64,000 nt of DNA from a virus (taxonomy: Duplodnaviria > Heunggongvirae > Uroviricota > Caudoviricetes), in the IMG/VR virus record IMGVR_UViG_2703718819_000006; one strand, given 5' to 3'. The notes under the pieces are model-generated. The model saw only the letters and a program-made list of their open reading frames with translations, searched no databases and was not told where the DNA came from. Positions 7,546 to 36,325 of the stretch are shown here, one piece after another (position 1 is the stretch's first letter; the number at the start of each line of letters is the position of its first letter). The position numbers were made by a program, and so were the translations under genes.

Positions 7546-8289
7546 TTACCATGTTCCCCATATAGGGTTTTCCAATAATCTCGCCTCCAACGAATTGGCT
7601 ACTATTGCCGTTTGCAACGTTGGTTGGGGATAGTTTGCAAAGTCTGAATACTCATTTTCCTGCGTGACACGTTTATCTGCGGCATGTTTAACACCACTTG
7701 CTATGAAATGACGCATGATGCCCAACAGCCTCCGACTGTCTGCACTATCGTTTGCTAAAACATGAGGGAGCTGAAGTTCGATTTCTACCATTTCTCCATA
7801 CTTACCAACAAACTGTAGTTTGTCCGCACTGTACTTTTTATCCCTCCTTTGGATAAGGAAACCAGTAAAAGCATCACCTGGCGATGCCAAACTATCCACC
7901 CGCTTATTGGCAAGTCGAATAAGGTTCGTGAAAGCCATACAGTGATGCGCACCCATTCCCCCAAAGAACCCTTCGCTATTAATGTTAAGATCTTCAGTTT
8001 CATGGGATGCAATAAACCCAGGCCCGACGTTGGGAAGATATCCCCCCTCAACAAAAGGATTAATCAGGATCGGCGCAATACATCCAGGTGGTAGTGATTT
8101 CAAACTTTGCATCAATGGCGTCTCGGATATTAGACCAAGCAACGCGGCGAATTGTACTCCGTCAATATTGTTGCTGCCCCACAGAATACGTGGAGCCGCA
8201 CCATTGGAAGTATGCCCATTGATCAGTTTTATCGACTGCATCACTGCAAATACCTGCAAAAACTGCGAGCGGCTTAATTTAAACGACAT
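7546..8289 (-). CDS. hypothetical protein
   Basis: 247-aa ORF coupled to neighbours in the recombination cluster; no motif I can assign. Confidence 0.5.
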   Translation of the reverse strand: MSFKLSRSQFLQVFAVMQSIKLINGHTSNGAAPRILWGSNNIDGVQFAALLGLISETPLMQSLKSLPPGCIAPILINPFVEGGYLPNVGPGFIASHETEDLNINSEGFFGGMGAHHCMAFTNLIRLANKRVDSLASPGDAFTGFLIQRRDKKYSADKLQFVGKYGEMVEIELQLPHVLANDSADSRRLLGIMRHFIASGVKHAADKRVTQENEYSDFANYPQPTLQTAIVANSLEARLLENPIWGTW

Positions 8290-10195
8290 AGCTGCGCCCC
8301 TCTTTAACTTCCAGCGTAATAGTTTCCCGGAACCATGACTTCATCTCTTTATGGGAGATAATCAGCACAGTACCTCGCTCGCGAGCTTTGGACTCCAAAA
8401 TACCCATGAGGCGTTCAAGACCGGCTGTATCGAGTGCATCGTCAATTTCGTCGCCGATAAACAAATCGATGTTTTTACTCGCCCGGTTACTAACCAGATC
8501 CTGCAATGCCAAAGAACACGCAATGCGAACCTTCCGCTTCTCACCACCAGAGAGGGTCTGGAACGACTTACTTGAACCTTTCTTCTGCACACTAATGTTG
8601 AATTTGTCGCGATACTCACCTTTTTTAGTGACATCCATCGTCGACCACTCAGCAGTAATATTCCCGTCAGACAACGTATTGAGATACTCGGCAGTGCGTG
8701 TATTCAGGAAAGGCGTAACAGACGTCAAAATATGAGAACGCACCCCGGCAGGAGAGTAGACCTGACGAGCTTTTTCCAATAGCAACGTTTGTTCCTGAAT
8801 AGCCTTCAACTCATCTTTTAAGGACTTGAAGGTAGACTTACTGGATACCAGGTTATCTTCGTGTCTGGCGATAAGAGCAATAAACGGATTAATCTCTTTT
8901 GATATACGATCGACCTCAGTACGAGCACGAGTCACAAGAGACTCAATAGCAACAACCTCCTTCTCACGATGACGCAAAGATGAGAGTTGTTTCGTAAGCT
9001 CTTCAATCCGGGCAATGATAGCCGTTACATCAGGTGTCGTTTTAACAAGGGCAGACTCAATGCTTAACGCCTTCTCAAGATTCGTTTTGTGTTTAGCCAT
9101 TGCCTCTGCAAGTGTCTTCGCCTGACCAATTTCCTGACGTGCTTGTTCAATGAAATTCTCCTTCACCGTTGATAGATCTTCTTCGCAGTAGGCTTTGCCA
9201 CAAGTAGGGCATGGTGATCCCACTTTAGTACCAACCTCTTCTGCTTTGGTCTTAAAATTACGCGCGCGGTTCATTGCATCAGCCTGACTATTTTCTGTAG
9301 CGTTGATGCTTGCCCGAATATCAGTTATCGCACCACGAACTTTGAGCAACTTGGCGTCATGTTCTTCTTTTGAGGCTAACTTTTTGCGCTCACTTTCGAT
9401 TGCCTTCTCGGTATCACGGATCTGTTCGGGAAGAGTGCGGATCTCAAGTTCAACTTCCGTTAACTCAACTTCGGCACTGGCCAGCCCAGCCAGGGCATCG
9501 TCATAACGTTTAGAACGCTCTTGCTCCCATGATTCAGAGGAGGCTTTCGCTGACTCAATTTCTGACTGTGTTGCCTCAATGGTCGAGATTGTCGACTCCA
9601 ATTTGGTTTTAACCACATCCATACGTGCGGCAGCTGCATTAGCTCGCTCACGAGCAATAGCGTAGGCGCGTGTCAGTCTGTCAACGCCAGCGGCTTCTTC
9701 TACGATGGTTTTGAGGTTTTTGTCGGACATTCCAGGTAAATCTGGCATAGCTTCTTGGCTCGCATAGATGGAAGCCATGAAAACCTCTTTAGATGCACCG
9801 ATCAGACGCTCGACGAACTCTTGCGTCAGCGCATCTTTGCCTTTCGTCATATCGCCGTCTTCACCACGAACGATAAGCCGATTTTTGAACTCTTTGTGTT
9901 TACGGTGACGAATGATCGCATATCTCTTGCCTTCATCCTCGATGGTTACTGCAACACGACAGTTCTTTTCATGGTCGGTAGACAACACATCGTCACCCTT
10001 CACACCATGAGCTGTTTCGCCATAAAGACACCACATCAGGCTATTCATTAGCGTTGACTTTCCAGAGCCATTACTTGATGCGGAACTATCATCACTATTA
10101 ACACCCTGAATGAGTACTAAACCACGCTGATCTAACTCGACCTCCGCGCTGGCGATAGCCATAAAATTCTCAACCTGGAGCTTTAAAAACTTCAT
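8279..10195 (-). CDS. sbcC: SbcC/Rad50-like recombination ATPase
   Basis: 638 aa; N-terminal Walker A (GVNSDDSSASSNGSGKSTLMNSL), long central coiled-coil, C-terminal signature region (LSGGEKRKVRIACSLAL...FIGDEIDDALD). Confidence 0.85.
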   Translation of the reverse strand: MKFLKLQVENFMAIASAEVELDQRGLVLIQGVNSDDSSASSNGSGKSTLMNSLMWCLYGETAHGVKGDDVLSTDHEKNCRVAVTIEDEGKRYAIIRHRKHKEFKNRLIVRGEDGDMTKGKDALTQEFVERLIGASKEVFMASIYASQEAMPDLPGMSDKNLKTIVEEAAGVDRLTRAYAIARERANAAAARMDVVKTKLESTISTIEATQSEIESAKASSESWEQERSKRYDDALAGLASAEVELTEVELEIRTLPEQIRDTEKAIESERKKLASKEEHDAKLLKVRGAITDIRASINATENSQADAMNRARNFKTKAEEVGTKVGSPCPTCGKAYCEEDLSTVKENFIEQARQEIGQAKTLAEAMAKHKTNLEKALSIESALVKTTPDVTAIIARIEELTKQLSSLRHREKEVVAIESLVTRARTEVDRISKEINPFIALIARHEDNLVSSKSTFKSLKDELKAIQEQTLLLEKARQVYSPAGVRSHILTSVTPFLNTRTAEYLNTLSDGNITAEWSTMDVTKKGEYRDKFNISVQKKGSSKSFQTLSGGEKRKVRIACSLALQDLVSNRASKNIDLFIGDEIDDALDTAGLERLMGILESKARERGTVLIISHKEMKSWFRETITLEVKEGRSYVV

Positions 10196-10383
10196 ATAAC
10201 ACCTTTGATACCGTGTGTTAGCTTTTGACCTTCTTTCAATCTGAACTCCGTATGCGCCGGGAAGGATCTGCGCCTCAATACGCCTTTTCTGGTTAACCTT
10301 CCAAGATAAAACGCTACGGGATTTCCTTGTGGCGGGTAGGGCTTGTGAAACATCACCGTCTGGCCTCGTTCAAGTCTTTTCAT
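10192..10383 (-). CDS. possible small basic protein (63 aa)
   Basis: ATG-initiated ORF in the 229-bp spacer between sbcD and sbcC; its stop overlaps the sbcC start (ATGA). No clear Shine-Dalgarno. Confidence 0.2.
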   Translation of the reverse strand: MKRLERGQTVMFHKPYPPQGNPVAFYLGRLTRKGVLRRRSFPAHTEFRLKEGQKLTHGIKGVI

Positions 10384-10424
10384 CGTGATGGCAAAGTCTC
10401 GAAAGCTCCCATAACGACTTTGCC

Positions 10425-11510
10425 TCACACAGCCTCCGAACTCTCCGCTTCGGTGAGGATTTCCTGACACAAAATATCCAACTTGCTTAGATCAAATCCG
10501 CCGTCAGTATCGTGGACAATCTTGCAATAAGCAGATACCGACTCTCCCAGGCTATCGATTTTGCTGGTTTCCGTTGTGCTTGCTGTCCCTTCCATCATTG
10601 ATGACTTACGGATGAAGTTGCACACGACACCTTTTGCACCCATTGTTTTGAGGATGTTCTGGTACTTAATGCCTTCTTCATCGTTCTCAATTACGGCGCG
10701 GAAACGCACGTAGTTGCCGCGAATTTGGTCATCGGCAACATAATCTTCCAGGTTAATGAATTTAGGCGCACTGGTTTCGTAGTGACTGAAACTGCCGTCC
10801 GGGTTTACGATCATGTAACCAGCCAGAGATCCAACATCTCCCCAATTTTGATGGGTCAGCGCACCGACACTGATAACTCCAGGAATGACCTCTTTGTGGT
10901 TGTGGTAATGCCCACTAAGCACGAGACGAAAGCCGATATCCTTTAACTCCTGCGCATCGATACCGACGTCAGGCATTGTTGGAATGGCTTTGTTAATGGA
11001 TGTATGGATAACAACGTCATGATTATCACCTTCTACGCTCTTACGTAATGCTTTCAGATCGCTGATAAGCTCCGCATGATTGTTACGCCAGCTAATCAGG
11101 TGGACAGTCACATCACCAATTTTTATTGAGTGTGGGCGTTTGCCACATACGATTACCACGCCGATAGAACTCAGCGATGCTGCTGCGTTGGCGCTATATA
11201 CTGAATCGTTGGTTTCAAGATCGTGATTACCGGCCAGCATTACTACTGTCAGATCAAGCTCGTTGATAATCCACTTGTACGTTTCAGTTACGTAATGCAA
11301 AACAGAAGGGGACACAGTTCCTCGGACGTGAAATGTATCACCGGCAATCAGCATGTACTTACAACCGGCCTTCTTCATGGCGATGGCTGCTTCTTTCGTT
11401 GCTTCCAACTGTATTTCAAGTCTGGAGTTAAGCCCCTCAGCGTTCGTCGTGGAGAACGCATCCCATTTGTGGTAGTGGCAGTCAGAAATGACGCCGTATG
11501 GCAAAGTCAT
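10425..11510 (-). CDS. sbcD: SbcD/Mre11-like nuclease
   Basis: 361 aa; calcineurin-like phosphoesterase motifs (VISDCHYH, IAGDTFH, MLAGNHD, SGHYHNH). Confidence 0.85.
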   Translation of the reverse strand: MTLPYGVISDCHYHKWDAFSTTNAEGLNSRLEIQLEATKEAAIAMKKAGCKYMLIAGDTFHVRGTVSPSVLHYVTETYKWIINELDLTVVMLAGNHDLETNDSVYSANAAASLSSIGVVIVCGKRPHSIKIGDVTVHLISWRNNHAELISDLKALRKSVEGDNHDVVIHTSINKAIPTMPDVGIDAQELKDIGFRLVLSGHYHNHKEVIPGVISVGALTHQNWGDVGSLAGYMIVNPDGSFSHYETSAPKFINLEDYVADDQIRGNYVRFRAVIENDEEGIKYQNILKTMGAKGVVCNFIRKSSMMEGTASTTETSKIDSLGESVSAYCKIVHDTDGGFDLSKLDILCQEILTEAESSEAV

Positions 11511-11764
11511 GTGTTTTTCCTTTGTGGTTATTTTGATACAAATTTTAAGAGCAATGAGAAGGTAAACAACTATGCATAACGGTATGTTAGGAATGAAACG
11601 AGCGCATTAATATACAAAATTTATAAGTAAGTATATACCTATTTGTTGTGACGCAACTTTGCTTGTCTGTATGACTAAAAATAAGACAGGATCACTGTAG
11701 AACGCTATGAGAGCTATTTTGAGGGGGCGTAGATTCTATCTACGCCAATATACGATCTGGAGGG

Positions 11765-12409
11765 TTACAGCGCGTCAGTGGGCTTTTTACGCGCTGCGTT
11801 TATGCTTATGACGCCAGCTTTTGGACGTGGGTCAACAAGGTTAAGCTCTTCTTCACTGTGGTATTCGAGGTCGAACTCACGTTTTACATGTCTGATGTAG
11901 ATTGCGGTGAGTAGGCTATCTTTGGTCAAAAAGTGTCCGTAGGATTTGCGGATCACTTCTTCAACCTTCTCGATTTTCTCACCACCCATGCAGAGGTGAT
12001 TAAACCGGCTGTGTTTCCGCAACATCTCGTCAACTGGGCCTGAGTAAACCTTGTCTACTTTCCCAAAACGAATGATTTTTCCTGTATCTGCGGATACAAG
12101 GCAAATCAGTTTGTCTGGTGATAAACGATCTCGCCACGTCACACCTGAACGGAGTGTGTTGAAGTAGGGGGCATCCAATCCGATGATCGGTTTACGAAAT
12201 GCGAGCAATGGAACGTACCTAATACAACTATTCAAATGAAAGTTCACACCAGCCTTATCAAGTTTAATTCTGGTTTCGTAGATCGGGCACTTCGCCGCTA
12301 TACCGCAGATATCACAAAGTAACTTCTGCTTATTCAGGTTGGAATTTGATTCGATAGTGTAGGAGCCGTCCTCAAGACGACGAACCCAGCGCGTGCGTTT
12401 TAGATCCAT
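11765..12409 (-). CDS. hypothetical protein (Cys-containing, possible zinc-binding)
   Basis: 214-aa ORF with CDICGIAAKC; no family recognised. Confidence 0.45.
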   Translation of the reverse strand: MDLKRTRWVRRLEDGSYTIESNSNLNKQKLLCDICGIAAKCPIYETRIKLDKAGVNFHLNSCIRYVPLLAFRKPIIGLDAPYFNTLRSGVTWRDRLSPDKLICLVSADTGKIIRFGKVDKVYSGPVDEMLRKHSRFNHLCMGGEKIEKVEEVIRKSYGHFLTKDSLLTAIYIRHVKREFDLEYHSEEELNLVDPRPKAGVISINAARKKPTDAL

Positions 12410-12496
12410 AATCGTTTTTTCAGTAGTTATTGGCCGATGCTACGATAACTCATTAGGCATACCTTAATCTGCATTTGCCTGTTTACTTATCCCAGT

Positions 12497-12568
12497 TATC
12501 CACTGGATAGATCCAAATAAGAGATCCCAAGTAAGATCAAATAGAAGATCCAAAGAGATCCCCGATCG
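12497..12568. promoter_or_regulatory. DnaA-box-like site plus GATC cluster (origin-proximal module A)
   Basis: TTATCCACT at 12497-12505, then six GATC sites within about 60 bp (12510-12568) embedded in about 11-bp direct repeats. Confidence 0.5.
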
Positions 12569-12610
12569 CCTCTAGCCGTTGCGGTTACTGGTCTGAAAGG
12601 GTGTTGCCAT

Positions 12611-12710
12611 CCACTATGGAGAGCAAAGAAACCTCTGTAGAGAGCTGAATAACCGCTATGAAGAGTAAAACAACCACTCTGGAGAGCTGTATATATCCAC
12701 TGTAGAGAGT
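12611..12710. repeat. iteron array A (5 direct repeats, about 21-bp period)
   Basis: CCACTATGGAGAGC / CCTCTGTAGAGAGC / CCGCTATGAAGAGT / CCACTCTGGAGAGC / CCACTGTAGAGAGT starting at 12611, 12632, 12653, 12674, 12697. Confidence 0.7.
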
Positions 12711-12720
12711 AGAGCACATT

Positions 12721-12880
12721 GTCTTTTATGGATAACTTAATGACTTAATTCTTCATTAACATACTGATATACATAGATATATTTTAAACTCTACTCTTAG
12801 TCATGATTCTTATGTCCTTAAATATCCACAGAAGAGTAGAGTTACCTGTTCTTGAAATCCTCTGATTTTTATCCACAGGC
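12721..12880. promoter_or_regulatory. AT-rich spacer with perfect DnaA box (TTATCCACA at 12869-12877)
   Basis: Visibly AT-rich stretch between the two iteron modules; consensus DnaA box at its right edge and a near-consensus ATATCCACA at 12822-12830. Confidence 0.45.
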
Positions 12881-12991
12881 CCGATCCAGTAATTCAGATC
12901 ACAAAGAGAACCAAAGAGACCCATAAAGACCCAATAAGATCCCCGCCCACCTCAAACCGTTGTGCCATCTGCCTTCAGACATGATCGATAT

Positions 12992-13110
12992 CCACTATAG
13001 AGAGCGAATAATCCACTATAGGGAGCAAAGCAACCACTATAGAGAGGAGAAAAACCACTATAGACGGTAGGATAACCGCTGTGATGAGTGCTACTATCCA
13101 CTGTAATCAG
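12992..13110. repeat. iteron array B (6 direct repeats, 21-bp period) immediately upstream of rep
   Basis: CCACTATAGAGAG-type cores at 12992, 13013, 13034, 13055, 13076 (degenerate) and 13097; preceded by GATC sites at 12883, 12897, 12938, 12983. Confidence 0.75.
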
Positions 13111-13151
13111 CAAAGGCCACCAAAGCCGTCGAATAACAAGAGACATTTGGA

Positions 13152-14207
13152 ATGAGCGAAAACGGCAATAAAAACATAGCGATCGTTGAAGCATTTTCAG
13201 AAACAGATAAAAAGACAGGCGAAGTTGTTACGTTGGTTCCTAACACTAATAACACTGTTCAGCCTGTTGCTTTGATGCGTCTGGGCCTCTTCGTTCCGAC
13301 GCTGAAATCGACATCCAGAGGAAGAAAGGGGCAAATGGTCTCTATGGATGCCTCTGCTGAACTCAAACAGCTGTCTCTGGCAAAAGCCGAAGGGTACGAA
13401 GACATAAGGATCTCTGGCCTTCGGCTTGATATGGATAACGACTTTAAAACGTGGGTGGGAATAATCCACGCGTTTGCCAAACACAAGGTCGTTGGCGATA
13501 CTGTCACGTTGCCGTTCGTTGAGTTTGTAAGGCTGTGTGGCATTCCGACCGCCAGGTCATCAGCGAAGTTACGCAAACGCCTGGACAGTTCGCTAAGCCG
13601 TATTGCCACAAACACCATCTCGTTCCGTAGCAAAGGCTCTGATGAGTTTTACGTAACGCATCTTGTGCAAACGGCAAAATATAGTGTCAAGCACGATACG
13701 GTCGAACTGAAAGCAGATCCCAAGATTTTCGAACTCTACCAGTTCGACAAAAAGGTTCTTCTGCAACTCCGGGCTATAAACGAACTCTCAAGAAAAGAAT
13801 CCGCTCAGGCGCTTTATACTTTTATTGAAAGTTTGCCGCCTGATCCGGCACCAATATCACTAGCCCGTTTACGCGCCAGACTTAATCTGACAAGTCGCAC
13901 TATTACTCAGAATGCGACGGTAAGAAAGGCTATGGAACAGCTGCGAGAGATAGGATATCTCGATTACACGGAAGTTAAGCGCGGAAACTCGGTCTACTTC
14001 GTCATCCACTATAGGCGGCCAAAGTTACGCCAGGCACAAATATCAACAAAAATCGATAATGATGAGACGGAATATAGCCTCCCAGATGAGAATCAAGATG
14101 ACATTATCGACGTTGTGCCTGACGAAAAAGAAGGCAAAATGGTCATGTTGAGTAAAGAAGAACTGGCACTTCTCGAAGAGTTGCGCAAGGCAAAGACTCG
14201 CAAATAG
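13152..14207 (+). CDS. repA: iteron-binding replication initiator (RepA/RepE-like)
   Basis: 351-aa plus-strand ORF flanked on both sides by iteron arrays; the segment [13 protein letters not shown]...[14 protein letters not shown] parallels the RepE region AMRLYESLCQY...IVSLKIDWIIERYQL as I recall it. Confidence 0.65.
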
Positions 14208-14212
14208 CCCAA

Positions 14213-14690
14213 CCACTGTAGTTAGTAGTAAGGCTCACTATCCACTGTAGTGAGCCTTACTTATATCTGTAATTCGCTATCCACTATAGTGAGTATCGTT
14301 ATCTGTTGATAACCACTGTAGGCAGTAGAATGCAAATACTGAATTAAATGTTAGTGATCACTAACACTGATGAAACAAGGGCTGCGAGGTTAGTGGTCAC
14401 TGGGTATCTTGGAAAATTTACTGTCTATAGTGGTTGTTGTCGCCCTCATCTTTGAGCGTATCCACTGTGGCGAGTGGATATCCACTGAAAACAGCAAAGG
14501 CTTACTCACCATAGTGGATACCCGCTGGACATCTCACTCCAATACTCACCATAGTGGTTGTTTGATGCGAATGAAAGGCTGTCTACTCGCTACAGTGGTT
14601 AGCAGATATGTAGGAAGGTTTTGTTACTGACTACAGTGGATAATGAGCTGGATACGAATGCGGTGAGCAGACTACTCACCGCAGTGGTTG
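14213..14690. repeat. iteron array C downstream of rep (at least 10 copies, both orientations)
   Basis: Forward CCACT(G/A)TAG copies at 14213, 14244, 14279, 14311; inverted C(T/C)A(T/C)AGTGG copies at about 14417, 14495, 14535, 14588, 14629, 14682. Confidence 0.7.
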
Positions 14691-14729
14691 GTGCTATTAG
14701 TGTATTTTCTTCAACAGACCCCAAAGTGT

Positions 14730-14909
14730 TCAGGCTTTTGTAGTCAGTTTTCCTGTTTCTGGATCGTACATACGCCATTCACGCCGCTGGTGGACGATAT
14801 ACCCATCTTCACGTTCCAGACGCTCAAGAATGCCAGGCTGCTTGAAACCCTTAGCACGCCAGTAGCCGCTTGTTTTCTCGATTTCCAGACCTGCCAGTGT
14901 TAATGCCAT
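14730..14909 (-). CDS. small hypothetical protein (59 aa)
   Basis: My translation MALTLAGLEIEKTSGYWRAKGFKQPGILERLEREDGYIVHQRREWRMYDPETGKLTTKA; its ATG overlaps the stop of the upstream gene (TAATG). Below the ORF-track size cutoff. Confidence 0.3.
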   Translation of the reverse strand: MALTLAGLEIEKTSGYWRAKGFKQPGILERLEREDGYIVHQRREWRMYDPETGKLTTKA

Positions 14910-15244
14910 TATCCAACCTCCTTGCAGTCATCGAAAAGGTAGCTTTGCTGAGAAGCGTGAACGCCATAGAAGCCCTTGTATTTGTTGTATACGAAGTGGT
15001 CTTCTCCGACGCCGGTTAATTTGCCATTACGGTTTGTGAGATATGGGGATGACAACACTCGATCGTCACGCACAACATAGAACTGGTCGCCGCTGTCTAC
15101 GACCATCGCTCCATATGGTGCTTTTATGACGTCGGTAAGAGCGCCATTCTTAACGTCGGCTACAGACATTTCACACTGATAAACAGTGGTGTCGGCCACA
15201 ACGATCGAAGAAAGGAACAACAGCGCAAATGGGATGGCCTTCAT
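14909..15244 (-). CDS. secreted (signal-peptide) protein of unknown function
   Basis: 111 aa; N-terminus MKAIPFALLFLSSIVVA looks like a cleavable signal peptide; no lipobox Cys. Confidence 0.55.
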   Translation of the reverse strand: MKAIPFALLFLSSIVVADTTVYQCEMSVADVKNGALTDVIKAPYGAMVVDSGDQFYVVRDDRVLSSPYLTNRNGKLTGVGEDHFVYNKYKGFYGVHASQQSYLFDDCKEVG

Positions 15245-15420
15245 GCTGCCACCTCTTTGATTACATCAAATGCTGAATTAAATACGAGCACGATAGCCAA
15301 AGCGTTTATGACTACGTCGTTCACCGGGGAAAAGACTTTACGAATGACACCAGTGAAAATGCAGTCGATGACAAAAGCTATTGACACGATGAGTAACAAG
15401 TATTCAATAAAAATCTTCAT
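15241..15420 (-). CDS. small membrane protein (59 aa)
   Basis: My translation MKIFIEYLLLIVSIAFVIDCIFTGVIRKVFSPVNDVVINALAIVLVFNSAFDVIKEVAA has two hydrophobic segments; stop overlaps the downstream start (ATGA). Confidence 0.35.
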   Translation of the reverse strand: MKIFIEYLLLIVSIAFVIDCIFTGVIRKVFSPVNDVVINALAIVLVFNSAFDVIKEVAA

Positions 15421-15459
15421 GATAGGTAGATACTAACTTATATAAATTTTACTGTAAAC

Positions 15460-15735
15460 TCACTCAAAAGTGCTGATGCTTAAAATACGCTCAAGATGTG
15501 CGGCATCTTCATCACTGATTTGTTGAGTCTCTTCTACGTACCAACAGTTGCCGTTATGCCAACAAACACCATCATCATCAACCATCACTGAATCAGCGTC
15601 ATGACCTGTATATTCAACGAGAATACGCTGGATCAGTGCGTCAGTTTCTTCGTCGTTAAGGCCATCGGCTTTGACCATAAAAAGCGGAAACACGTCATAG
15701 ACAGTGCTGGTAACGATTCGAACTAAAACTCTCAT
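15460..15735 (-). CDS. hypothetical protein
   Basis: 91-aa acidic ORF in a co-oriented gene array. Confidence 0.45.
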   Translation of the reverse strand: MRVLVRIVTSTVYDVFPLFMVKADGLNDEETDALIQRILVEYTGHDADSVMVDDDGVCWHNGNCWYVEETQQISDEDAAHLERILSISTFE

Positions 15736-15790
15736 GTGTTTTTCCTTTTGTGGTTAGTGTTTACTTATTTTGTTAGTTATGAATAGGCGA

Positions 15791-16216
15791 TCAATCATCT
15801 TGTTTAGGGAAAAACTGTTCAATAACTCTGTCAACGGCTGTGTCTATATGGAGTAGATGCCACACAACCATATCTTTGCTCCCCATGCCTTGTGTGAATA
15901 TCACGTCATACTTACGCCATGCGCAGTGGAACCAATATGCTGAGTCATCAATTGGTAAATCCTCTCCCGCCTCTTTGAAGTATTTCAGCAGCATTGCTTG
16001 CTCTGCCGTTGGCGTTGGACCTATTTCCTGAGCGTACATACGGATAAATCGCTGCCAGTCTGTCTCGTCGGTGGTCGGATCTGGTGGATTCATTTCGGCG
16101 ATAGCGTTTCGTAGCTGATGCGCCCAATCAGGTTCAGGAAAGCCTTTTGATACTTCATCATCAATAACATCCAGAGCCGCGTTTGCGGCATCGTAGAGTT
16201 TCTTAATTGCTGCCAT
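15791..16216 (-). CDS. hypothetical protein
   Basis: 141-aa ORF; acidic, Trp-rich; no recognisable motif. Confidence 0.5.
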   Translation of the reverse strand: MAAIKKLYDAANAALDVIDDEVSKGFPEPDWAHQLRNAIAEMNPPDPTTDETDWQRFIRMYAQEIGPTPTAEQAMLLKYFKEAGEDLPIDDSAYWFHCAWRKYDVIFTQGMGSKDMVVWHLLHIDTAVDRVIEQFFPKQDD

Positions 16217-36238: not shown

Positions 36239-36325
36239 TGGCGGAGAGTAATGGAATCGAACCATCATCGCTTGCGCAATGGGACGGTTTTCAAGACCGC
36301 TTGAGCACCATGCTCCCTACTCTCC
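36239..36325 (-). tRNA. tRNA-Ser (anticodon UGA), type II with long variable arm
   Basis: Hand-folded: acceptor GGAGAGT/ACTCTCC, anticodon loop CTTGAAA, T-arm GATGG-TTCGATT-CCATT, encoded CCA. Confidence 0.75.

Follow-up and report, generated by a model that had tools for sequence, protein, structure and literature searches.

Are the small open reading frames (ORFs) that sit between the longer genes of this virus genuine genes, and if so, where does each begin and end? The stretch of 64,000 nucleotides analyzed here (the window) is identified as an SSU5-like phage-plasmid by its DNA identity to Escherichia phage Cyrano (pLF82; 99%) and to Salmonella phage SSU5 (about 78-79%). An earlier note had drawn attention to five small ORFs, at 10192-10383, 14730-14909, 15241-15420, 38282-38434, and 38630-38809, and all of them are present, on the minus strand. 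Comparison with relatives identifies the five as real, conserved small genes of the SSU5-like phage-plasmid that have been annotated before in related genomes; the observation was correct but ordinary, and the boundaries of two of the five ORFs have to be corrected. In the model that we consider highly probable, five genuine small protein-coding genes would lie in tight minus-strand operons, mostly with overlapping stop and start codons and with Shine-Dalgarno motifs. The ORFs are numbered as follows.

ORF1, 10192-10428, minus strand: best model, 78 aa, very basic (pI 11.6), between SbcD-like and SbcC-like nuclease genes
ORF2, 14730-14909, minus strand: 59-aa truncated allele of a conserved 70-aa P1 Cra homologue, with an AAGGAGG Shine-Dalgarno motif
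ORF3, 15241-15420, minus strand: 59 aa, hydrophobic, two predicted membrane-spanning stretches
ORF4, 38282-38434, minus strand: 50 aa, N-terminal membrane segment and basic tail GKRVYRVVHET
ORF5, 38630-38809, minus strand: 58 to 59 aa, N-terminal membrane segment and basic tail RRGRIYRIV

Annotated counterparts of all five exist in SSU5 (SSU5_074, 068, 066, 047, and 045 for ORF1 to ORF5, respectively), while the Cyrano annotation contains ORF2 (CYRAN_62), ORF3 (CYRAN_60), and ORF4 (CYRAN_38) and leaves out ORF1 and ORF5. Each ORF matches a PHROG profile at full length (PHROGs 37951, 804, 2535, 6302, and 4381, in the same order), all of these being families of unknown function, and searches of Pfam, NCBIfam, PADLOC, and PDB sequences returned no significant match for any of the five. 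The claim that the ORFs are shorter than 60 aa fails for 10192-10383, which has 63 codons, and applies to ORF2 (59 aa) through a private stop codon.

ORF2 is short only because of this stop codon, which lies at the end of a three-gene unit (ORF3, the 111-aa gene, and the cra-like gene).

111-aa gene, 14909-15244, minus strand: N-terminal hydrophobic, signal-peptide-like segment (by hydropathy); PHROG 2077
Premature stop and lost end of ORF2, 14697-14732, minus strand: TGA at 14732-14730, then ten further codons (TLWGLLKKIH) up to the ancestral stop at 14699-14697

In relatives, codon 60 is GGA or CAA and the frame reads through to 70 aa, as in the full-length counterparts of 213 nt (CYRAN_62, annotated “P1 Cra protein,” and SSU5_068), whereas in the window it is TGA, a single-base change (GGA to TGA) relative to Cyrano. 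The 59-aa product aligns to positions 3 to 61 of the 72 in PHROG 804 (E = 1.1e-26). The 70-aa form is 42% identical to P1 Cra over 62 residues (E = 4e-4), and with tblastn it retrieves the cra genes of P1, P7, and phiW39 at 42 to 44% identity (E = 1e-4 to 4e-4). An AlphaFold2 model of the Cra-like protein (pLDDT, 67.5) has an all-beta fold and a C-terminal helix; Foldseek searches of the PDB and BFVD with this model gave nothing with an E value below 0.09. Judged by the model, the private nonsense mutation removes the conserved C-terminal helix (residues 62 to 69), and the ten codons beyond the TGA, whose motif TLWGLLKKIH is nearly invariant in the family, are predicted to be untranslated now. 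It is also conceivable that the TGA is a sequencing or assembly error and that the full 70-aa Cra-like protein is really encoded: the 69-nt window sequence with the TGA has no match above 98.6% identity in the 183 closest plasmid records, so the allele is absent from all of them, and it differs from Cyrano by one base. Finished assemblies, however, rarely carry single-base substitution errors, and we think an error rather unlikely. The end of the cra-like gene and the RepA iteron array are 5 nt apart. A hairpin after ORF2 was considered as a terminator and rejected; it lacks a T-run and belongs to an inverted RepA iteron. In Klebsiella relatives, a gene annotated “recombinase” lies about 1 kb upstream of the cra-like gene.

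The second boundary to be corrected is the start of ORF1. Its surroundings are as follows.

SbcD-like metallophosphoesterase gene (sbcD), 10425-11510, minus strand: upstream partner of ORF1
SbcC-like AAA ATPase gene (sbcC), 8279-10195, minus strand: downstream partner of ORF1, with an ATGA overlap
GGAGG Shine-Dalgarno motif, 10433-10437, minus strand: inside the sbcD 3' end, 4 nt upstream of GTG 10428

The frame proposed earlier, 10192-10383, comprises the last 63 codons of a 78-aa frame, and its ATG lies 41 nt past the sbcD stop. The start is most likely GTG 10428, 45 nt upstream of that ATG, judging from four kinds of evidence. (i) This GTG overlaps the sbcD stop (GTGTGA), and at this junction two divergent lineages begin ORF1 with an ATG that forms an ATGA overlap with the sbcD stop. 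(ii) Pairing to the anti-Shine-Dalgarno sequence is strong at 10428 (-9.5 kcal/mol, about the top 1% of background) compared with -3.0 at 10383 and -3.3 at 10470. (iii) GGAGG is kept in 9 of 10 genomes, the exception being SSU5 (L002; GGAGT), and in all but three of 47 IMG/VR versions (L027, GGAGT; L019 and L043, GGAGA), a count that leaves aside the L090-95 lineage, whose junction differs. (iv) The PHROG 37951 profile (E = 1.4e-35), to which the 63 aa align at positions 15 to 75 of 77, has 14 further N-terminal residues, as does the 78-aa model. Because constraint on the N-terminal 15 codons is weak (dN/dS, 0.57; variable sites by codon position, 10/10/13), we infer rather than prove this start. 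The spacing of 4 nt between GGAGG and GTG 10428 is short. Public gene calls for ORF1 are inconsistent in their start (92, 88, 78, 77, 63, 59, and 53 aa), and sometimes the gene is uncalled.

We regard as unlikely the reading in which ORF1 is the 63-aa protein from ATG 10383, as for SSU5_074, and the 41 nt after the sbcD stop are untranslated spacer. The original SSU5 annotation takes this ATG, a Met occupies the codon in four lineages (Escherichia, Salmonella, Enterobacter, and Yersinia) as well as in the L019 homologue, a distant one, and the weak constraint on the 15 codons upstream fits a spacer. However, the codon is ATT in Klebsiella, with a Met one codon earlier, and the L090-95 lineage has no Met there; the ATG lacks a Shine-Dalgarno motif, its pairing energy being at background level; the 45 nt upstream contain no stop or indel in any lineage and preserve an F-R/W-D-F motif via synonymous changes; and the two divergent lineages start from a canonical ATG on the sbcD stop. 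Much less probable still is the 92-aa form annotated by PGAP in Enterobacter and Salmonella (279-nt coding sequences), which starts at GTG 10470 with a 46-nt overlap with sbcD. Although the frame is open to 10470 in the main lineages, no Shine-Dalgarno motif precedes this GTG, in L095 of the L090-95 lineage a stop interrupts the frame six codons before the ATG of that genome, and the gene is called or read from the sbcD stop in Klebsiella, L019, and L093.

ORF1 is a conserved gene. It lies between sbcD and sbcC, on their strand, both in the window and in all relatives inspected, among them L019, whose homologue is 41% identical, and the L090-95 lineage. A homologue is detectable at 79 of 81 IMG/VR and Logan loci, and 765 of 769 matching plasmid records can be aligned to 80% or more of the sbcD-sbcC spacer. 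Ten representative ORF1 sequences align without gaps, and none of the 47 distinct DNA versions is frameshifted, with the pMT1-like L073 and L048 ending 4 and 8 codons early. The sbcD-sbcC ORF had been called the weakest of the five, which it is not; its dN/dS is 0.16 overall and 0.12 in the core, and in the 78-aa model it has overlaps at both ends.

Conservation of the reading frames in relatives, which the earlier note had proposed as a check, was found for five of five ORFs. Frames, lengths, and stops are kept in 7 to 10 relatives (from Escherichia, Salmonella, Enterobacter, Kluyvera, Yersinia, and Klebsiella) that reach down to about 67% DNA identity, with lengths and stops preserved at about 50 to 80% protein identity. 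No frameshift occurs in the five ORFs, and the sole in-frame stop among the sampled relatives is a TGA in Y. pestis pMT1, which lies four codons short of the ORF1 end. Median dN/dS values in the claimed frames are 0.16, 0.057, 0.27, 0.14, and 0.17 for ORF1 to ORF5, versus about 0.8 to 2.5 in the other forward frames and 0.05 to 0.12 in annotated neighbor genes, and variable sites fall mostly at the third codon position (for ORF2, 21/9/54). The overlap motif alone is not beyond chance: ORFs of at least 45 aa in the six frames form 51 overlap-type junctions, many of them within long genes. It is comparative conservation, not the overlaps, that sets the five ORFs apart from chance. That they are chance frames in noncoding spacers, or spacers conserved for RNA or regulation instead of protein, is extremely improbable, for although spurious ORFs often show overlap motifs, an ORF fills an inter-gene gap in 1.6 to 4.9% of shuffles per gap, and several automated annotations miss some of the five, the codon-position pattern and the dN/dS values well below 1 are found solely in the claimed frames, lengths and stop positions hold across the relatives, each of the five matches its PHROG profile at full length, and an Rfam search found no family match within the five ORF intervals.

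ORF3, ORF4, and ORF5 each contain 19-residue windows with a Kyte-Doolittle score of at least 1.6, in agreement with the earlier view that three of the five encode small membrane peptides. ORF3 (PHROG 2535; E = 1.4e-31, full length) is kept in seven relatives, among them Klebsiella, whose annotation omits it. No Shine-Dalgarno motif precedes ORF3 (-0.7 kcal/mol), and its upstream region is AU-rich and conserved, with the following element.

Sigma-70-like promoter element TTTACA-17 nt-TAGTAT, 15430-15458, minus strand: conserved; found by pattern scan

At 9 of 12 matching positions, such an element is not significant alone (3 found versus 2.6 expected). In relatives, its -35 hexamer is invariant and its -10 hexamer is TAGTAT except in L005 (TAGCAT), and it is kept in Klebsiella, too, despite an unrelated upstream gene. 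ORF3 would be a two-span membrane protein that opens the three-gene unit behind a conserved promoter-like element; the 111-aa gene in the middle has a dN/dS of 0.116. The -10-like hexamer ends 10 nt upstream of the ORF3 ATG, which would place the transcript start about 3 nt upstream, and ORF3 may be translated from a leaderless or very-short-leader mRNA.

ORF4 and ORF5 belong to a second cluster, together with the genes below.

DNA ligase gene, 38806-40128, minus strand: upstream of ORF5
71-aa gene, 38431-38646, minus strand: between ORF5 and ORF4; PHROG 4054; annotated “putative transcriptional regulator” in Cyrano
96-aa gene, 37995-38285, minus strand: membrane segment (by hydropathy), downstream of ORF4; PHROG 4507

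Both ORFs are predicted to encode single-span membrane proteins with basic tails, and the two are possibly paralogous (hhalign probability, 80%; E = 1.4e-5). ORF4 (PHROG 6302; E = 1.4e-36) is intact in nine relatives. For ORF5 (PHROG 4381; E = 1.1e-39), most relatives have CTG or GTG as their first codon, whereas the position of the second ATG is conserved; the start is probably this second ATG, at 38806, and the SSU5 homologue, SSU5_045, is 177 nt long. The 71-aa gene shows a weak match to the C-terminal part of a Csa3 profile (positions 148 to 194 of 194).

Overlaps of 1 or 4 nt on the same strand join sbcD to ORF1 (GTGA), ORF1 to sbcC (ATGA at 10195-10192), ORF3 to the 111-aa gene (ATGA at 15244-15241), and the 111-aa gene to ORF2 (TAATG at 14909). 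In the second cluster they join the ligase gene to ORF5 (ATGATG at 38809-38804), the 71-aa gene to ORF4 (ATGA at 38434-38431), and ORF4 to the 96-aa gene (ATGA at 38285-38282). The exceptions are the start of ORF3, which follows a 39-nt gap, and the stop of ORF5, which lies 17 nt inside the 71-aa gene. Overlaps of 1 to 4 nt had been claimed for each ORF; the junctions described are present, but the ATG proposed for ORF1 touches nothing, and ORF3 appears to be coupled at its stop only, not at its start. The overlap junctions are all conserved in 7 to 10 relatives, and the upstream Shine-Dalgarno motifs likewise; at the sbcD/ORF1 junction, the lineages have four different nucleotide solutions (GTGTGA, TAGTG, GTGATG, and ATGA). 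Pairing energies to the anti-Shine-Dalgarno sequence are -9.5 kcal/mol for the ORF1 GTG, -12.1 for ORF2, -7.2 for ORF4, and -6.6 for ORF5, against a background mean of -2.4. Most junctions combine a stop codon that overlaps the next start (ATGA, TAATG/TGATG, or GTGA) with a Shine-Dalgarno motif in the final codons of the gene before it. The likely mechanism is termination-reinitiation, in which a ribosome that ends the upstream gene would restart on the next one. Both the translation of the five ORFs and their coupling are what we infer here.

A window-wide scan for other overlap-coupled small ORFs gave 45475-45636, 42977-43123, 36265-36653, and 883-1110, all without a PHROG match. An ORF “fragment” at 42777-42980 was rejected; it is the C terminus of an intact 446-aa DnaB-like helicase.

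In the 78-aa model, ORF1 appears to be coupled at both ends, to sbcD upstream and to sbcC downstream, and would be co-produced with the SbcCD-like nuclease. A 72- to 78-aa gene with overlaps is present at the sbcD-sbcC site in every sampled SSU5-like lineage, even at about 35 to 40% identity. A basic 78-aa protein that is always encoded between, and apparently coupled to, both SbcCD-like subunits is therefore a candidate accessory factor. We venture, as a speculation with the odds against it, that ORF1 might be a dedicated third component of the SbcCD-type (Mre11/Rad50-like) nuclease of the phage-plasmid, namely, a basic adaptor or regulator, possibly DNA binding, whose output would be in fixed proportion to the nuclease because of the coupling to sbcD and sbcC. 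An exhaustive HMM search of 1.8 billion representative proteins retrieved only nine clusters, of which P0001, P0014, and P0022 to P0025 are plain homologues and the three weakest, P0026 to P0028, are local or doubtful matches; it found no wider family from which to borrow a function. The AlphaFold2 model from a 16-sequence alignment (mean pLDDT, 45) was too poor for a fold search. A profile search gave a single match at E = 0.94, to the HxlR-type regulator 1yyv, which is a weak winged-helix hint and not evidence. A relationship to the nearby 71-aa putative regulator was rejected (hhalign probability, 0.3%).

The main value of these findings concerns annotation quality. A 60-aa ORF cutoff conceals at least five real genes in the window, public pipelines are inconsistent on the five small genes (the sbcD-sbcC gene is an example), and one gene, ORF2, looks small solely through a private nonsense mutation. 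The sbcD-sbcC gene is the single biologically suggestive point among the five. SSU5-like phage-plasmids are widespread in clinical Enterobacterales and include Y. pestis pMT1 and S. Typhi pHCM2 (PMC7969092). Accurate models of the small genes in these elements are of some practical use.

Four known systems invite comparison. P1 Cra is the “Cre-associated” short ORF between loxP and cre (PMC2409434). The ORF2 family resembles it in size and in its phage-plasmid setting; whereas P1 Cra adjoins cre, the ORF2 family has no cre-type recombinase as its neighbor in the relatives from E. coli, Salmonella, and Yersinia, and the annotations of Cyrano, SSU5, and pMT1 show no recombinase within about 1.5 kb of the cra-like gene. 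A leaderless phage mRNA is exemplified by lambda cI transcribed from PRM, and ORF3 is similar in lacking a Shine-Dalgarno motif and in having a -10-like hexamer 10 nt before its ATG; for ORF3, a short leader or another role of the element is equally possible. Bacterial and phage operons, such as the E. coli trp operon, provide the classical cases of coupled translation at overlapping stop and start codons. The genes described here share with it the same-strand arrangement, the 1- or 4-nt overlaps, and the Shine-Dalgarno motif within the last part of the preceding gene, and they differ from it in that coupling is read from the nucleotides alone, the ORF3 start is uncoupled, and ORF5 and the 71-aa gene overlap by 17 nt. 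In SSU5 itself, 068 has a counterpart of only 59 aa in the window owing to the stop codon, and 074 is annotated from an internal ATG (63 aa), while the evidence in the window favors the 78-aa form; otherwise, SSU5 genes 074, 068, 066, 047, and 045 are orthologues of ORF1 to ORF5, alike in position, order, and overlaps, with 69 to 93% protein identity.

All five small minus-strand frames proposed in the earlier note, ORF1 to ORF5, are borne out by the sequence, with the junctions and substitution patterns listed here.

Junctions, median pairwise dN/dS and variable sites at codon positions 1/2/3 of the five small frames
10383-10192, minus strand: ORF1 as drawn, between the SbcD-like and SbcC-like nuclease genes; no overlap at the start (ATG 41 nt beyond the sbcD stop), ATGA with the sbcC start at the stop; dN/dS 0.16; sites 39/30/70
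14909-14730, minus strand: ORF2; start sharing TAATG with the stop of a 111-aa gene (14909-15244, minus strand), no overlap at the stop; dN/dS 0.057; sites 21/9/54
15420-15241, minus strand: ORF3; start free of overlap (39-nt gap), stop sharing ATGA with the start of the 111-aa gene; dN/dS 0.27; sites 32/22/49
38434-38282, minus strand: ORF4; ATGA at start and stop; dN/dS 0.14; sites 15/10/29
38809-38630, minus strand: ORF5; ATGATG on the ligase stop at the start, stop 17 nt within the next gene; dN/dS 0.17; sites 19/11/35
Annotated neighbour genes: dN/dS 0.05-0.12
Other two forward frames of the same DNA: dN/dS 0.8-2.5

The overlap claimed for each frame was read directly at most junctions, but not at the drawn start of ORF1 or at the start of ORF3. 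ORF1 as drawn has 63 codons and is thus not below 60 aa, while the three small membrane peptides are ORF3, ORF4 and ORF5, which contain 19-residue Kyte-Doolittle windows of at least 1.6. The overlap motif alone does not discriminate: a six-frame scan limited to ORFs of 45 aa or more finds 51 overlap junctions, and many of these fall within long genes. A gap-filling ORF arises, per inter-gene gap, in 1.6-4.9% of shuffles.

Conservation is more telling. Over window segments 8000-16000 and 37500-40500, identity to Escherichia phage Cyrano (phage-plasmid pLF82, from E. coli LF82) is 99.1% and 98.8%, respectively, and identity to Salmonella phage SSU5 is ~78-79%. Cyrano has been termed an SSU5-like phage-plasmid (PMC9928086), and SSU5 is a type member of one phage-plasmid group (PMC7969092). 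The plasmid collection contains ~770 related records (Escherichia, Klebsiella, Enterobacter, Salmonella, Yersinia [pMT1], Citrobacter, and others). Orthologous segments were taken from syntenic regions of 17 phage and plasmid records covering Escherichia, Salmonella, Enterobacter, Kluyvera, Yersinia, and Klebsiella, with DNA identity down to ~67%. Across the relatives sampled, frames, lengths, and stop positions are kept for all five ORFs, the one exception being the ORF1 copy of Y. pestis pMT1, with a TGA four codons ahead of the usual end. All five have full-length PHROG family matches (E 1e-26 to 1e-40) and annotated counterparts in SSU5 (in order, SSU5_074, 068, 066, 047, and 045). Since the frames are intact in relatives and dN/dS is low, the conservation check suggested in the earlier note is passed and does not refute the five ORFs. 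This conservation supports them as small genes, whose translation and coupling we infer from the sequence. An Rfam search of the window returned three tRNAs only, with no match within the five ORF intervals; the three adjoining tRNA genes lie at 36975-37218 (minus strand), roughly as in the homologous stretch of Cyrano (L003; Ser, Thr, Asn).

The sbcD-sbcC spacer ORF had been ranked as the weakest of the five; this ranking does not hold. The alignment of the 229-nt spacer over ten representative genomes is free of gaps. Of the 769 plasmid records that match a 401-nt query, 765 cover at least 80% of it. A homologue is detectable in 79 of 81 additional loci (IMG/VR, 80; Logan, one); the 47 distinct DNA versions contain no frameshift, with pMT1-like L073 ending 4 codons early and L048 ending 8 codons early. 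What needs revision is the start, for which GTG 10428 is favoured over ATG 10383. Klebsiella has ATT at the codon corresponding to 10383, and a more divergent lineage (L090-95) has no Met there. In every lineage compared, a start codon overlaps the sbcD stop: GTGTGA in Escherichia, Salmonella, Enterobacter, and Yersinia, GTGATG in the Cronobacter type, TAGTG in Klebsiella, and canonical ATGA in two divergent lineages (L019/L043 and L090-95) whose proteins share ~35-41% identity with that of the window. GTG 10428 is preceded, at a distance of 4 nt, by GGAGG, with a pairing energy to the anti-Shine-Dalgarno sequence (dG) of -9.5 kcal/mol (within about the top 1% of background), compared with -3.0 at 10383 and -3.3 at 10470, a start that PGAP sometimes takes. 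The 15 added N-terminal codons show no stop or indel in any lineage, and their F-(R/W)-D-F motif is kept via synonymous changes; otherwise, they are weakly constrained (dN/dS 0.57). Taken together, these features make a 78-aa protein (10428-10192; pI 11.6; 17 K+R versus 4 D+E) the best model, and it would be coupled to sbcD by its start and to sbcC by its stop.

ORF1 belongs to a narrow family, which collapses to 21 clusters at 90% identity and to 9 representatives at 50%, and most representatives clearly come from the SSU5-like phage-plasmid group. Domain-library searches with ORF1 gave no match, and its structure prediction yielded no usable model (pLDDT 45). Because of its obligate co-location and putative double coupling with both nuclease subunits, the most attractive, if speculative, hypothesis is that ORF1 might be an accessory or regulatory factor of the SbcCD-like nuclease; such a dedicated partner is the only reading here with some upside. 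Orthologues of all five genes are present on the plague plasmid pMT1 (L006, NC_005815.1, ~8105-8371; L012, 2083-2909), where the early TGA of the sbcD-sbcC gene abolishes the ATGA overlap with sbcC.

ORF3 is predicted to be the first gene of an operon. The 39-nt gap separating it from the upstream gene holds a promoter-like TTTACA-17 nt-TAGTAT (15458-15430, minus strand), a match not significant by itself. Its -35 hexamer does not vary, and all relatives but L005 (TAGCAT) have TAGTAT as the -10 hexamer, while spacer and flanks vary; the element is kept in Escherichia, Salmonella, and Yersinia relatives and also in Klebsiella, whose upstream gene is unrelated. With transcription starting ~7 nt past the -10 hexamer, the leader would be ~3 nt, and no Shine-Dalgarno motif precedes ATG 15420 (dG -0.7), so that ORF3 may reasonably be read from a leaderless or short-leader mRNA. 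In every relative, its stop overlaps the 111-aa start by ATGA, and the 111-aa stop overlaps the start of the next, Cra-like gene (ORF2) by TAATG or TGATG. The 111-aa protein has a hydrophobic, signal-peptide-like N-terminal segment (MKAIPFALLFLSSIVVA/DT) and is probably exported, in which case the unit would combine three kinds of product: membrane-bound (ORF3), exported (111-aa protein), and soluble (the Cra-like protein).

The chain of ligase, ORF5, a 71-aa gene, ORF4, and a 96-aa gene is overlapped throughout in all relatives. In these, the first ORF5 codon is CTG or GTG and the second is ATG, which argues for a conserved start at 38806 (TGATG overlap with the ligase stop). ORF4 and ORF5 share a layout in which a membrane segment at the N terminus precedes a basic tail, and the tails have a common G(K/R)R(V/I)YR(V/I)V motif. 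Compared profile to profile, the two match with 80% probability (E 1.4e-5); paralogy is thus plausible, if not secure. The 71-aa gene (38431-38646, minus strand), named a putative transcriptional regulator in Cyrano, weakly resembles the C-terminal part of PADLOC Csa3 (profile positions 148-194/194, E 0.0015).

ORF2 is, from the alignment, a truncated allele of a 70-aa Cra homologue. Cyrano and SSU5 carry at its site a 213-nt gene ("P1 Cra protein" or "putative Cre-associated protein"). Codon 60 (14732-14730), GGA in Cyrano, is TGA in the window; in all eight relatives, the frame continues to a common stop at the position of 14699-14697, with a nearly invariant C-terminal TLWGLLK(K/Q)IH. A query of 69 nt with the mutation at its centre found 183 plasmid records, none above 98.6% identity (at least one mismatch each), so the premature stop would be either private to the window genome or an error. 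The 70-aa model (moderate confidence, pLDDT 67.5) has an all-beta fold and ends in a helix (residues 62-69), which the truncation would remove; a structural neighbour search with it gave nothing informative. Nearby, repA (13152-14207, plus strand) is flanked by RepA iteron arrays (12600-13110 and 14210-14692; core roughly A[A/T]CCACT[A/G]TAG). Only 5 nt separate the ancestral stop codon of the Cra-like gene from the last inverted iteron (14673-14692). A GC-rich hairpin at 14682-14660 was rejected as a terminator, being part of this iteron.

The five ORFs have annotated orthologues in SSU5, belong to existing PHROGs, and are thus already known, and none is a new kind of feature; overlapping genes are common in phage operons generally, and these are arranged likewise. 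Our contribution lies in gene-model corrections (starts of ORF1 and ORF5, truncation of ORF2, promoter of ORF3) and in a record of uneven public annotation. In RefSeq plasmids (L005, L007-L011, L013-L016) and Cyrano (L001, L003), ORF1 is called at 92 aa (Enterobacter/Salmonella), 88 aa (pMT1), or 77 aa (Klebsiella), compared with 63 aa in SSU5, and is missing from several E. coli records as well as from Cyrano. The Cyrano annotation includes ORF2, ORF3, and ORF4 and also leaves out ORF5; Klebsiella records carry the ORF3 homologue without annotating it, and several records do the same with ORF4. The 70-aa form of ORF2 matches cra of P1, P7, and phiW39 at ~42% identity (E ~1e-4). P1 cra is a short ORF with loxP on one side and cre on the other (PMC2409434), whereas the Cra-like gene of this element, judged by the Cyrano, SSU5, and pMT1 annotations, stands without an adjoining recombinase.
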